From Octopus vulgaris (taxonomy: Eukaryota), in assembly GCA_951406725.2 (NCBI GenBank), contig OX597829.1:38688001-38752000 (forward strand): a DNA stretch of 64,000 bases, written 5' to 3'. This document shows positions 17,481-62,820 of the stretch, piece after piece. Both the position numbers and the translations under genes were made by a program. The notes beneath the pieces are model-generated. The model was not told where the DNA came from and made no database searches. It worked only from the letters and a program-made list of their open reading frames with translations. Each line of letters opens with the position of its first letter. The stretch's first letter is position 1.

Positions 17481-18188
17481 CATCATCATCATCATCATGA
17501 TCGTTTAGCATCCGCTTTCCATGCTAGCATGGGTTGGACGGTTCAACTGGGGTCTGGGAAGCCAGAAGGCTGGATACCCTTCCTAACACCAACCACTCCA
17601 TGAGTGTAGTGGGTGCTTTTTACGTGCCACCGGCACAGGTGCCAGATGTGGCTGGCAAATGGCAATGATCAGATGGTGCTTTTTACGTGCCACCGGCGCT
17701 GGCAACGGCCACTTTCGGATGGTTCTCTTATGTACCACCGGCACTGGTATCGCAGCTACAATTTCCATTGATGTTGATCGATTTTGATTTTGATTTTCAC
17801 TTGCTTCAACAAGTCTTCACAAGTAGAGTTTTGTGTCCCAAGAAGGAAAGGTATGCATAAGTGGACTGGCTACATCCCAGGTAGAGGCCACGGGTTATGG
17901 TCTCACTTGTCCTGCCGGGTCTTCTCACGCACAGCATACTTCCAAAGGTCTCGGTCTCTAGTCATTTCCTTGGTGAGACCTAAAGTTCGAAGGTCGTGCT
18001 TCACCACCTCGTCCCAGGTTTTCCTGGGTCTACCTCTTCCACAGGTTCCCTCAACTGCTAGGGTGTGGCACTTTTTCACACAACTATCTTCATCCATTCT
18101 CGCCACATGACCATACCAGTGCAAAAGTTTCTCTTGCACACCACAACTTATGCTTCTTAGGTCCAACTTTTCTCTCAAGGTACTTACA
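17481..18188 (-). mobile_element. 5'-truncated RTE LINE (same family as 59233-61975)
   Basis: ORF 17903..18178 LREKLDLRSISCGVQE...WYGHVARMDE...[18 protein letters not shown] matches the C-terminus of the 712-aa ORF; followed by the same 3' UTR and (gat)n tail. Confidence 0.93.
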
Positions 18189-19554
18189 AGGTACCTTAAG
18201 AAATATTTTCAAATTTTAGTGCAAGGCCAGCAAGAGAGTGATGGTCATTTACAGTCACTCCACTGCTCAAATGACACTTATTTTATCAGCCCCAAAAGAT
18301 GAGAGGCTAAGTCAACCTCAGTAGAATTTCAATTCAGAATGTAATGAACTGGAAGAAATACTGCTTGGCATTTTGTCCAGCACTCTAACAAATCTATGAG
18401 CTTGCCACCTTAATTTTCTTTTCTGATAGAGATACAAGATCTAAATTTTGGAGAAGTAGGACCACAAAACATTTTGTCCGGCTTGCTAATGATTCTTCTA
18501 GCTCACTGCTTTAGTAACATTATAAATAGTAATAATAATAATAATAATTTATCCAATAAAGAGTATAGTATATTCACTTAGTAACTTAGCAACTTGGACT
18601 AGAATCTTGAATGTGAAAGAAAAAGATGGTTATTTATGTATTTAAATTTTCTGTTTTTAAAAAAACATTCTTATGAAAATTACCTTGAAAAATATTTTTT
18701 CTCAATTACTCACAAAACTTTATAAATATTCAATTGTTGTAACAAATGCTTTATTAGTTAATTAGTTGAATTTTTTTTTTTTTTTTAAATCCTATGTCTT
18801 TTCAAAGCCACAAACTCCTTCATCTCATTTCATAGACATAATACATATTTTCCCAGAGTTAGAAACTGGTTGTCTGAAGCAGGATGTGAGTTTAATAGTT
18901 TGATACTTGAAATGTTGAAACAGTAATCCAATTTTGTTTTTCTTTTAAATCAATAAGCTTCTTTCTTTTTTTATAATTTTTTTCTATGAAGAAAATTGCT
19001 AGATATAATGGATTATTGACCAGGAAGAGAAAAAAATATATATATGTTAGTAAATGCCTTGTAAATCTAAAATGTCAACTTATCTAGAAAGCCAAGTTGA
19101 ATTATTTTAGCTGCATTATACAGACACTGGGCTTCACATGCTGGTACTGGTGTTGTCAGTTCAATTACTGCAAAGCTCCATGTATAGTATGCACTTTTTC
19201 CCCACTAAAATCAAGATTAATTTTACCGGTTCATATAACACATTGTATGAGGTTAAAAAAACATTTTTTTCTAACCCACTTTTATTAACAAAGAACAATT
19301 ATTTAATAAAAATTATTTTTCAAGATTTTTAAAAATTATATTTCATTATATTTTATATGAAAATGAAACCTTTAAAACTAATATTTGGGATTTTAGGGTT
19401 ATCTGCTCTTGTTACATTTGTGAAACATTGCATGTTATACTGAATATTTCCAATGCTATATATGATGATACATGTACAATATCATGTACAATACTGTGTT
19501 ATACATGCTATCATAAATTTTAAGATAACTTAAATCCAAAAATGTAGTTGTTCA

Positions 19555-57370: not shown

Positions 57371-57642
57371 ATTGTCATGGTTGGAAATCCTTTGATCATA
57401 GGCCTTCTTGATCGGGTTCAGCTTGTGTATTTTGTTGTCCAAAAGTATGACATACTGCTTGTGGTGTTAGTTGTACTGGTAAGGTTTGAATACAAAACCA
57501 TGTTGTCAATAGCCATTGTATCATCATAATTTTATATACAGGTGTGGCTTTGCAACCACAGCACACCTTGAGCAAGTGTCTTCAATGATAGCCCTGTGAT
57601 AACAAAGACGTTGTAAGTGAATTTGGTTGATAGAAACTGTAG

Positions 57643-58060
57643 AAGGCGGCGAGCTGGCAGAATCGTTAGCACGCCAGGCAAACTGTTTATCGGTATTTCA
57701 TCTGCCATTACATTTTGAGTTCAAATTCCGCCAAGGTCGACTTTGCCTTTCATCCTTTCAGGGTCGATAAATTAAGTACCTGTTGCACACTGGAGTTGAT
57801 GTAATCGACTTAATCCGTTTGTCTGTCCTTGTTTGTCCCCTCTGTGTTTAGCCCCTTGTGGGTAGTAAAGAAATAGGTATTTCGTCTGCCATTTTGTTTT
57901 GAGTTCAAATTCCGCCAAGGTCGACTTTGCCTTTCATCCTTTTGGGGTCAATAAATAGAGTACCAGTTACACACTGGGGTCGATGTAATCGACTTAATCC
58001 CTTTGTCTGTCCTTGTTTTTCCCCTCTATGTTTAGCTCCTTGTGGGCAATAAAGAAATAA
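57643..58060 (+). mobile_element. SINE family A dimer inserted in an old family B SINE
   Basis: Two units joined at aaagaaata|ggtatttcgtc; agaaactgt on both sides; family B pieces at 57540-57640 and 58060-58280. Confidence 0.92.
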
Positions 58061-59232: not shown

Positions 59233-61975
59233 ATCATCATCATCATCATCGTTTAACGTCCGCTTTCCGCGCTAGCACGGGTTGGACGGTTTCGACCAGG
59301 GTCTGGGGAGCCAGGGGCTGCCCCAGGCTCCAGTCTGGTCTGGCAGTGTTTCTACAGCTGGATGCCCTTCCTAACGCCAACCACTCCGCGAGTGTAGTGG
59401 GTGCTTTTTACGTGCCACCTGCACAGGTGCCAGAGGGGTCTGGCATCAGCCACGGTCGGTTGGTGCTTTTTATGTGCCACCTGCACAGAAGCCAGTCGGG
59501 GCGGTGCTGGCATCGGCCACGTTCGGATGGTGCTTTTTATGGGGGGGGGTGCAGAAATATAGGGGAGCACCAGTGGGGAAGGGTGTTCAGAGTGTTCATG
59601 TACTTGACTCAACAGGTCTCCTCAAGCACAGCGGGACGATCTGGGATCCGGGGTACTTTGAATGGGCAGGGGCTATGCGGAACTGATGCAGGAAGCAGCC
59701 CGGGTCTTTGCAGTCACAGCATATCTCCAGAGATCTCGGTCCTTTGCCATTGCCTCGGTGAGGCCCAACGCTCTGAGGTCAAGCTTGACTGCCTCATCCC
59801 ATGTCTTCCTGGGTCTACCTCTCCCCCTGATACCTTCAACTGTTTGGGAGTGGCACTTCTTCACACATCTCTCCTCATCCATCCGCAGCACATGACCATA
59901 CCATCGCAAGCGTCGCTCTTGCACACCACATCTGATGCTTCTTATATCCAGCATTTCTCTTAGGATGCTTACACTCTGTCGTGCGTGCACACTGACATTA
60001 CACATCCAGCGGATCATGCTAGCTTCATTTCTTTCAAGTCTACGCATGTCCTCTGCAGTCATAGCCCATGTTTCATTACCGTGAAGCATGGCAGTTCGCA
60101 CACATGCATCATACAGTCTACCTTTCGCTCTGAGGGAGAGACCCTTTTTCGCCAGTAGGGGTAGGAGCTTTCTGAACTTTGCCCAGGCTATTCGTATTCT
60201 AGTGGTGATACTCTCTGTGCATCCACCTCCGCTACTAACTTGGTCACCCAGGTAGCGGAAACTATCAACTACTTCTAGTTTCTCTCCCTGGAGTGTGATG
60301 GAATCTGCTTTCTGAGTGTCTGTGGTGTCTATTGTCCCTGTGCATCTGCCGCACATGAAAGCTATCTTATCTGTTAATTTCCCTTTAATGTTGCTGCACC
60401 TCTTGTGTGTCCATAGCTTACATTGGGTGCATCTTATGGAGTTTCTACCTGCACCTTTCCCACAGATTGAGCAGGGCCACCTACCCGAGGGGGTGTGTGC
60501 TGAGTACGCCTTGCTGCTTACTATTACTTTGGTCTTTGCTACATTTACTCTAAGGCCCTTTGATTCTAACCCTTGCTTCCACACCCGAAATTTCTTTTCT
60601 AGTTCCGGTAGTGATTCTGCTATGAGAGCCAGGTCATCAGCATAGAGGAGCTCCCAGGGGCATCCTGTTTTGAATTCCTCTGTTATTGCCTGGAGGACTA
60701 TGATGAATAGAAGGGGACTGAGGGCTGAGCCCTGGTGTACACCTACTTCTACCCGGAATTCTTCACTATATTCGTTGCCAATCCTAACCTTGCTGGCAGC
60801 CTCTCTGTATAGAGCCTGTACAGCCCTTATTAGCCATTCGTCAATCTCCAGCTTCCGCATCGACCACCAGATAAGGGAACGGGGAACCCTGTCAAAGGCT
60901 TTCTCCAAGTCCACAAAGGCTATGTAGAGGGGTTTATCTTTAGCTAGGTACTTCTCCTGCAGTTGTCGGACCAGGAATATAGCATCAGTGGTGCTTCTAC
61001 CTGGCACAAAACCGAACTGCATTTCATCTAAGCAAATTCTCTCCCTAATGAGATGGGTTATGACCCTCTCTGTGACCTTCATCACCTGGTCCAACAGTTT
61101 GATACCCCTGTAATTATTTCTATCTAGAGCATCACCCTTACCCTTGTAGCAGTTGACTATGGTGCTGCTATGCCAGTCATTGGGTATGACTCCATTGTGA
61201 ACTACCCGGTTTACAATGCGGGTGACTATGCCATAGCCCACATAGCCAGCTGTTTTAAGCATCTCAGCAGTGATTCCTGATGGGCCGGGGGCTTTGCCTG
61301 GTTTCATATCCTTAATTGCCTTATCTACAAGGGAGCTGTCTATTCGGGTAGCTGGTCCCTCTACTGGGTCAACATTTGGCAGGCTCTCCTCCTCCCATTC
61401 ATTCTCCTCGTTCAGCAGTCTTTCGTAATGGCTTCTCCAAGCCTCTTTCTTTTCACTAACAGTAAAAGCAAGTGCCCCATCATCCATGCGGACACATTTC
61501 TCTCCTGTAACATCACTATTTTCTCTGACACACTGTCTGGCAATCCGAAATACCTCAGCTCTTTGGTCCTCACGTCGCTGGACATTGGCAAACTTCTTCT
61601 TTTCTGCTACATCTTTAGCTATGTATACCTGCCGCCCAGCCTCCCTTTTGGCTGCCTGGTACAGTTCCCTGCTGCCCCCATCCCTCCAGGCTTTCCAGGC
61701 CCGTCTCTTTGCACTAATGGCTTTATCTACTGCACTGTTCCACCACCACGTAACTCTAGGTCTGGAAGGGACTCTGCACCATCCACAGACTCGGTCTGTG
61801 GCACTCAGCAAGCTGTCCCGTAGGAATTCCCAGCTACCTTCTATGTCTGACGTCTGGAGCTCCTCCTCCCTCTCATCAAATTTCTTGATGAGTATATCCC
61901 TAAATTTCTGACCAAGTGAAGGGTTCTTTAGCCTCCAAATCCTTCTTTTCTGGATTGGTTTGTTTCTTGGAGTCC
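59233..61975 (-). mobile_element. Young 5'-truncated RTE-clade LINE
   Basis: Open frame from ~61976 to 59673, ~440-bp 3' UTR, (gat)n tail; the APE endonuclease domain is missing because of the truncation. Confidence 0.96.
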
Positions 61976-61976
61976 A
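59673..61976 (-). CDS. Non-LTR reverse transcriptase (RTE clade) with internal PHD-type finger; N-terminally truncated
   Basis: [73 protein letters not shown]; the frame stays open ~55 codons upstream of the listed TTG start ([17 protein letters not shown]...WEFLRDSL). Confidence 0.95.
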
Positions 61977-62030
61977 GCAAAAACTGTCTGATGAACGGCA
62001 ACGAGAAACTCAGAGTAACAGATTTTGTTG
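61975..62030 (+). ncRNA. Type I hammerhead ribozyme motif
   Basis: Stem I cagcaaaaactgt/acagattttgttg; CTGATGA 61988-61994; cg-gcaa-cg stem II (A.A at the closing pair); GAAA 62005-62008; palindromic stem III actcagagt; GUA site after 62017. Confidence 0.75.
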
Positions 62031-62169: not shown

Positions 62170-62820
62170 AACTTAGAAAGGTTTTGGCCAGTATTGGCCC
62201 AGGCCATGTCTAACTTAATAGCACCACCTGGCGAAGTCTTTCAATTCAGGATTTGGGCACCAAGGCCCATTCGAGCAGAGAGTTATTGTTTGCGGAGACA
62301 TATCCGGGTGTGGGTGGTTTGTCTGGGACTGTTTGAAGGAATTTGTCCAAAGACTTCTTGAATTTTGTGTGGTCAGTTTCTGTTTTGACGTGTCCTGGTG
62401 TAATGTTGAAGAGAGCGGGTCCAATAGAGGTGAAATAATTGTGCCGTATTGTCGTTATGTGATGCGATTTAGATTTTTGTTGTGGACGGATGGCACGTAG
62501 TCCAAGCCTTGGATGTATTTTGAAGGTGATGCCAACATCATTCGGACAGTGCTGATGGAATATTTTCCACTTCATACAGATAATGTAGCATTCACGGCGT
62601 CGTTGGAGTGAATACAGTTTCAGCTTCTCTAGTCTACCCCAGTAGTCAAGGTCTGACATGCCATCTATCTTTTTTGTGATTGACCTTTGGGGAGCTTCAA
62701 TTCTCATAATATTTTGTTTTGTGTAGGGAGACCACAGTGGACAGCAGTATTCAAGGTGGGGTCGGGCAAAAGTGGAGAAGAGAAGGATAATAGTGTGGGA
62801 ATCTCTCGACTGGAAGGTTC
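62170..62820 (-). mobile_element. CR1/L2-group LINE 3' fragment
   Basis: [16 protein letters not shown]...QRSITKKI...[18 protein letters not shown]...GPALFN...FKKSLDKFL; both ends lie in (TA)n. Confidence 0.9.

Follow-up and report, generated by a model that had tools for sequence, protein, structure and literature searches.

A predicted PHD finger inside the reverse transcriptase of a multi-phylum RTE-type LINE lineage, seen from a copy in Octopus vulgaris

Introduction

The choice of target by long interspersed nuclear elements (LINEs) that carry an apurinic/apyrimidinic endonuclease (APE) is usually credited to that endonuclease, and plant homeodomain (PHD) fingers were reportedly noted in the CR1/L2 LINEs by Kapitonov and Jurka in 2003. 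Here we describe a LINE copy of the RTE type on the minus strand of a 64,000-nucleotide stretch of the Octopus vulgaris genome (NCBI GenBank assembly GCA_951406725.2, contig OX597829.1, positions 38,688,001 to 38,752,000 of the forward strand; the whole stretch is called the window below), in which a predicted PHD-type zinc finger lies inside the reverse transcriptase (RT).

RTE-clade LINEs such as AdLINE3 (PMC5850137) and the octopus element RTE-2_OV (PMC9115989) consist of one open reading frame (ORF) for APE and RT and end in a short tandem-repeat 3' tail, and the lineage described here is built in the same way. An insert of about 63 amino acids (aa) with a PHD finger in the RT sets the present lineage apart from the published descriptions of those elements; RTE-2_OV is described with a terminal C2H2 finger (PMC9115989). 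CR1/L2 elements are LINEs in which a PHD finger also occurs, likewise proposed to act in chromatin targeting; as of 2014, no LINE PHD finger had been tested functionally (PMC4120745). In CR1/L2 elements, however, the finger lies in ORF1 or at the start of ORF2, whereas the present finger splits the RT of an element from another clade.

The site of the finger can be compared with R2. In R2Bm, the stretch between motifs 6 and 7 of the RT holds an R2-specific insertion called 6a, which recognises an upstream target motif through residues 672-677; nicking fails when 6a is deleted, and 6a was predicted to be confined to R2 (PMC10499050). In vertebrate R2, 6a wedges into the upstream DNA (PMC12180492). 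The present lineage also carries an insertion between motifs 6 and 7, but where R2 has a short loop (core 672-677) that reads bases in a site-specific element, it has a whole zinc finger in a dispersed element with an APE endonuclease.

We found no description of an RT-internal PHD finger in open-licence full text; Repbase, Dfam, subscription papers and supplements lie outside that scope and may mention it. None was found in PMC9115989, PMC3849965, PMC3905857, PMC8392823, PMC5850137, PMC2887409, PMC9004415 or PMC7846101. Automatic Pfam labels already give RT plus PHD on many database proteins, and the architecture is therefore visible in public annotation.

Results

The finger of the window copy reads C513-x2-C516-x10-C527-x2-C530-x4-H535-x2-C538-x14-C553-x2-C556 (nt 60473-60342) and lies between RT motif 6 and FRYLG. 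A sequence-only reading of this DNA had placed eight intact, in-frame C4HC3 ligands at 60342..60473, with a Trp (W533) two residues ahead of the His, and both the coordinates and the pattern proved exact. It had also called the finger a PHD, an identity upheld by its ligand spacing, by Pfam PHD (PF00628), which against a cut-off of 24 bits gave 28.4 for a 100-aa piece cut out of the protein and 23.2, marginally too low, for the ORF as a whole, and by the PDB table, in which all small-domain matches of the family profile were PHD proteins. The Pfam families C1_1 and C1_2 scored below PHD on the finger, and C1-domain, C2H2 and RING identities were rejected on their lower scores. The loose C4HC3 pattern arose in 0 of 20000 protein shuffles, and an NCBIfam search made no addition to the Pfam picture. 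The finger is predicted from its sequence to adopt the cross-braced, two-zinc PHD fold.

The Pfam RVT_1 match reaches profile position 205 in two PHD-less sisters but stops at 193 of 205, at the insert, in the window copy, from which it follows that the finger interrupts the RT domain; the earlier claim that it sits inside the RT, between motifs 6 and 7, is thus supported. Another RTE in the window had been said to have only a short linker at this point, and indeed about 28 codons separate its motif 6 from FKYLG, in an element broken by stops and frameshifts. The normal spacer, by contrast, had been put too low at about 15-25 aa: in the sisters it is 27-33 aa, when the count runs from the motif 6 K to the motif 7 F.

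A search with aa 440-620 of the window copy gave 386 proteins at E <=0.001 among 974 candidates, and the best 120 were aligned with the query; because the query contains the finger, these 120 matches were selected for it. The strict motif stands 56-58 aa past YADD in 117 of the 121 aligned proteins. Named relatives among the best 120 of 386 come from octopus, the catfish Neoarius graeffei, the cnidarian Hydractinia (two) and one symbiont genome bin, the last of which is taken to be host contamination; the closest named protein among them, from Octopus bimaculoides, is 75% identical over aa 440-620. A second subclade carries the motif in 68 of 71 proteins.

A query with the RT core only, which is unbiased, was also used. 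Among the best 150 of 650 representatives at E <=1e-30, the motif 6-7 spacer could be measured in 96: it was long (89-98 aa) in 17, with the strict motif in 13 and a wider His-Cys gap in 4; short (27-33 aa) in 77, 61 of which stood at 28 aa and were mostly near-copies of one family; and odd (19 and 38 aa), in a deletion-like manner, in 2. Metagenome loci, 79 in number, gave 26 long spacers (15 with an intact motif) and 0 short ones, while 40 were not anchorable and 13 were without motif 7. We rejected a copy-specific accident or a misassembly, since the motif recurs in 117/121 aligned proteins, in metagenome loci and in the Logan contigs of run X2. These sequence comparisons confirm the predicted internal PHD finger as a trait of a large multi-phylum LINE lineage, rather than of the window copy alone.

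Variants of the arrangement were seen among the relatives. The full-length relative P0271 has two tandem PHD fingers at the motif 6-7 site (aa ~720-820; Pfam PHD, two stretches), so that this slot accepts about 110 extra residues. In P0125, P0137, P0156 and P0172 the fingers occupy the same site, with the gap from the His to the sixth ligand widened (3-4 residues). In a catfish record labelled slc22a21 isoform X2 (P0007), an almost complete PHD-RTE ORF follows a short start that looks like a transporter; this is probably a gene-model artefact or an exonised element. With the finger alone as the query, a single match was obtained among proteins of 33-107 aa. When RT clusters were left out, an Atlas search yielded PHD and PHD_Pygo clusters (0.92-0.93) without names, and no donor of the finger could be identified among them.

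Six of the ligands are invariant in the 121 rows and two are conserved at 99%, so they hold across copies and families, as the original proposal would have it. The non-ligand residues P512, G519, N523 and W533 are conserved at 98-100%, and the top residue has a mean frequency of 0.69 across the finger, compared with 0.77 for the RT core and 0.46-0.51 for the linkers. The ratio of non-synonymous to synonymous change (dN/dS) was measured on 52 copies of a related family, which came from metagenome contigs and formed three subfamilies (one copy left out), and was pooled over three subfamily pairs that are not independent. Between subfamilies the finger had a value of 0.08 (25 synonymous and 12 non-synonymous changes), compared with 0.03 for the RT core, 0.07 for the thumb and 0.27-0.49 for the linkers; in a decay control, the corresponding ratio for polymorphisms in the finger (pN/pS) was 0.43 within subfamilies and 0.11 between them. 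The finger is under purifying selection in this related family, which is how the dN/dS check put forward in the sequence-only reading turned out. In the family of the window copy itself, Logan contigs of run X2 are present in all 30 bins. Eight of the 40 variants listed there (78 more exist) fall in the finger, 6 of them synonymous and 0 at ligands; two finger variants among these 40, at Val520 and Arg517, shift the window copy towards the commonest residue of its family.

In a tree of RT cores (64 rows, with 5 dropped for short coverage and the finger columns excluded), 46 PHD rows fall inside one group of 51 (support 97/75), in which five PHD-less rows are nested. Strict monophyly of the PHD rows is neither rejected nor shown by the approximately unbiased test (p-AU 0.34), and the simplest scenario is a single gain followed by few losses. 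P0153, P0148, P0154 and P0230 form a well-supported PHD-less group nested among the PHD rows of the free tree, a candidate for a clean loss and thus for a natural control. The sisters in this tree, which includes no named RTE reference element, are all unnamed; we take the PHD-less sister RTs to resemble those of fish Rex3 and plant RTE.

In alignments, query residue 496 corresponds to residue 666 of R2Bm, and the match between R2Bm and a PHD-less sister runs unbroken across R2Bm 426-711. No similarity to the sequence of the 6a loop was seen in the R2Bm alignments, which end at residue 666-670, before the loop. Taken with the R2 structures (PMC10499050; PMC12180492), the alignment puts the finger at the place of the target-DNA-facing loop of R2, and by analogy it would face the upstream target DNA as 6a does.

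Among solved PHD fingers, the family profile matches Pygopus best (E 5e-6), with PHF23 and PHF13 behind it. The finger shares with the Pygopus PHD (PMC2726290; PDB 2vpe, 4up0) an aromatic-Pro-Cys start and the Val, small residue and Trp of the pocket; unlike it, the finger has a loop two residues shorter, has lost the D352 and E360 equivalents, is basic instead of acidic overall and has no known BCL9-type partner. The pocket residues of Pygo1, Y341, V350, A356 and W366 (PMC2726290), map to positions 511, 520, 524 and 533 by alignment to fly Pygopus, on a presumed transfer of numbering from the fly protein to human Pygo1. When Tyr/Phe/Trp/His, Val/Ile/Thr, Ser/Ala and Trp are counted as kept at these positions, all four are kept in 108/119 and 65/68 fingers of two sets (173/187 together), and the Trp ahead of the His is present in 185/187. 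According to a review, this Trp is invariable in H3K4me3 readers, which typically have a Trp cage and an acidic Arg2 pocket; exceptions are Pygo1, which leaves Arg2 exposed, and RAG2, which is without the acid (PMC3241642). Readers of H3K4me0, of the BHC80/AIRE type, have an acidic cluster ahead of the first Cys and no aromatic cage (PMC3241642), a description that does not fit the finger.

The features of the locus are collected in Table 1. In tblastn, 27 full-length homologues start to resemble the copy at nt 61844-61991, mostly at 61955-61973, after their endonuclease; the copy is therefore 5'-truncated and, being without an endonuclease, not autonomous. No target-site duplication was evident by eye at the ends of the copy. 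The full-length relative L001 encodes endonuclease, RT and PHD together in one ORF of 1091 aa, and a single ORF with the APE endonuclease followed by the RT is found in L001, P0005 and P0015. Membership of the window copy in the RTE clade rests on this single-ORF architecture of its relatives and on its tandem-repeat tail, which takes the place of poly(A). Pfam found no C-terminal CCHC knuckle in aa 590-778 of the open frame, and the absence of such a knuckle is a feature of RTE-clade LINEs. The sequence-only reading gave the ORF as 712 aa, presumably counted from an internal start codon; from stop to stop it is 778 aa.

Eight other 3' ends of the same or closely related families, with GAT-type tails, lie in the window; at one of them the coding sequence is 71% identical. 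Four of the nine family tails, with the main copy counted, run into a TA or CA-type microsatellite. A GAT-type tail is also present in the relative L003, whose 3' end shares the DNA motif before the tail (window 59251-59290), the proteins being only about 50% identical; this motif is a candidate recognition signal for the RT. No unusual RNA fold was found at the 3' end of the element (z -0.53). Elsewhere in the window, a minus-strand open frame at 62246-62806 ends a LINE-like fragment without a Pfam RT match, which we assume to be akin to the thumb region of the CR1 clade, and a partly duplicated repeat at 57640-58060 (+) looks to us like a tRNA-derived cephalopod short interspersed nuclear element.

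Table 1. Positions in the window of the LINE copy, its parts and related features.
Feature	Position	Strand	Basis or remark
RTE-type LINE copy, 5'-truncated, without endonuclease	59233..61970	-	5' edge approximate; tblastn of homologues and 3' tail
Open frame P0001, stop to stop 778 aa	59676..62009	-	first ~13 codons outside the element's similarity
RT core, Pfam RVT_1, aa 297-497 (profile 6-193 of 205)	60519..61121	-	match ends at insert
Catalytic YADD, aa 456-459	60633..60644	-	invariant in 121 aligned rows
RT motif 6, aa 485-495	60525..60557	-	aa 496 aligns to R2Bm residue 666
Extended motif 6-7 spacer: variable N-linker, PHD, variable C-linker	60276..60518	-	~63 aa longer than in sisters; R2 6a loop position
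Predicted PHD finger C4HC3, aa 513-556	60342..60473	-	ligand pattern and Pfam PHD
Pygopus-like pocket positions W511, A520 (V in most relatives), S524, W533	60411..60479	-	alignment to Pygopus
RT motif 7 (FRYLG), aa 584-588	60246..60260	-	aligned rows
3' untranslated region (UTR), terminal GGACGTTAAAC motif common to distant relative L003	59251..59672	-	
(GAT)6 tandem-repeat tail, adjoins (TA)n microsatellite	59233..59250	-	
Second RTE-like LINE, degenerate, motif 6-7 spacer ~28 codons	8031..8830	+	internal comparison
Eight further 3' ends	16418, 17485-18196, 36009, 44906, 45830, 46222, 46397, 47636		

Discussion

We suggest, with a probability of roughly 0.45, that the finger is a chromatin tether in which a methyl-lysine pocket is combined with a basic, DNA-contacting face. 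The RT of this lineage would be held on chromatin upstream of the insertion site, and hence of the nick, by its internal PHD finger, the Pygopus-like pocket holding a methylated histone lysine, likely H3K4, while the basic face of the finger contacts the DNA. The outcome would be a bias towards, or a better efficiency on, marked nucleosomal DNA rather than strict site specificity, and the dense, dispersed copies in the window also point to an effect on bias or efficiency rather than to strict targeting. Both the identity of the ligand and the effect on insertion sites are what we infer.

Several observations weigh against such a tether. Nine family 3' ends in 64 kb of microsatellite-rich DNA are not what promoter-like targeting would give, closely related sister lineages that have no finger also transpose, and the mapping of its site to R2 6a is a sequence alignment only. 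The window copy itself keeps three of the four pocket positions, with Ala520 in place of Val. Across the 187 fingers the D352 and E360 equivalents are variable and mostly non-acidic, and there is no acidic cluster ahead of the first Cys (0-1 acidic residues in the preceding 6 aa in 173/187). The finger carries a net charge of +7 in one set and +6 in the other, the 187 values running from +2 to +12 with none at or below 0; the RT core has about +0.7 per 50 aa. Histone-binding PHD fingers, by contrast, typically have negative surfaces, and the VIN3 PHD, which is basic, binds nucleic acid (DNA, RNA) weakly and does not bind H3 (PMC9640981). A basic finger fits nucleic-acid binding equally well, and the pocket positions could be conserved for folding instead. 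The idea of a chromatin reader, which the sequence-only reading had raised, therefore holds up in part: the conserved Pygopus-like pocket and the R2 6a position speak for it, and the loss of acidic H3-contact residues and the strongly basic character of the finger speak against it.

The same charge, which includes the conserved K536, K/R537 and R555 and amounts to +6 to +7, would suit a nucleic-acid-binding module that reads no histone, a basic zinc finger that, functionally akin to the R2 6a loop, grips the upstream target DNA and stabilises nicking and priming. The lost acidic H3 contacts, the position at R2 6a, a DNA-contacting loop, and the weak DNA/RNA binding of the basic VIN3 PHD, which has none to H3 (PMC9640981), agree with this explanation. 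We consider it rather unlikely; it gives no reason for the retention, in 173/187 fingers, of four hydrophobic pocket positions, the divider Trp among them. The VIN3/VEL PHD superdomain is like the finger in being a basic PHD proposed for nucleic-acid binding; it is, however, a plant superdomain with an altered pocket, whereas the RTE finger retains the pocket residues (PMC9640981). Alternatively, the pocket may be retained, with the acidic histone contacts gone, because it binds a non-histone protein of the host, as in the case of Pygopus and BCL9 (PMC2726290), for nuclear entry, recruitment of repair factors or evasion of silencing. Non-histone proteins are also bound by PHD fingers (PMC3241642), but conservation from cnidarians to fish would demand a very conserved partner, for which histones fit best; we hold a non-histone host partner to be improbable.

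It is quite improbable that the finger binds the element's own RNA (3' UTR or template), aiding ribonucleoprotein assembly and replacing the ORF1 chaperone absent from RTE elements. A basic surface, the single-ORF architecture of L001 and the frequency of PHD fingers in ORF1 of CR1/L2 elements (PMC4120745) would all be in keeping with such a role; single-ORF sisters without a PHD exist, however, the corresponding site faces DNA in R2 structures, and the fold of the 3' end is ordinary (z -0.53). Finally, the existence of sisters without the finger, and of a PHD-less four-row group that is nested among PHD rows in the free tree and may represent a loss, could mean that the finger is a tolerated passenger that stays folded merely to spare the polymerase. 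That a passenger would show 90-99% conservation at the non-ligand residues G519, N523, W533 and G543 while the linkers vary, and a dN/dS of 0.08, is very hard to credit, and the finger has been kept across deep branches though a clean deletion would be easy.

Conclusions

A bolder version of the chromatin tether, and one that we regard as doubtful, is that a multi-phylum LINE lineage carries a histone-methylation reader in its polymerase, at the target-facing site with which R2 reads bases, and that its RT selects marked nucleosomes during target-primed reverse transcription. If true, this would amount to chromatin-guided LINE integration, comparable to that of chromodomain-guided long terminal repeat (LTR) elements, and motif 6a would be a reusable targeting slot of non-LTR RTs.

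The lineage offers a clean natural comparison, with sister RTs that have or lack the finger, and single and tandem fingers, all in one-ORF elements. The long-standing question of whether LINEs read chromatin marks thereby becomes directly testable. That the motif 6-7 site, described as an R2-specific insertion point, takes a whole domain bears on the evolution of RTs, and the site is relevant to the retargeting of retrotransposon-based tools for gene insertion.
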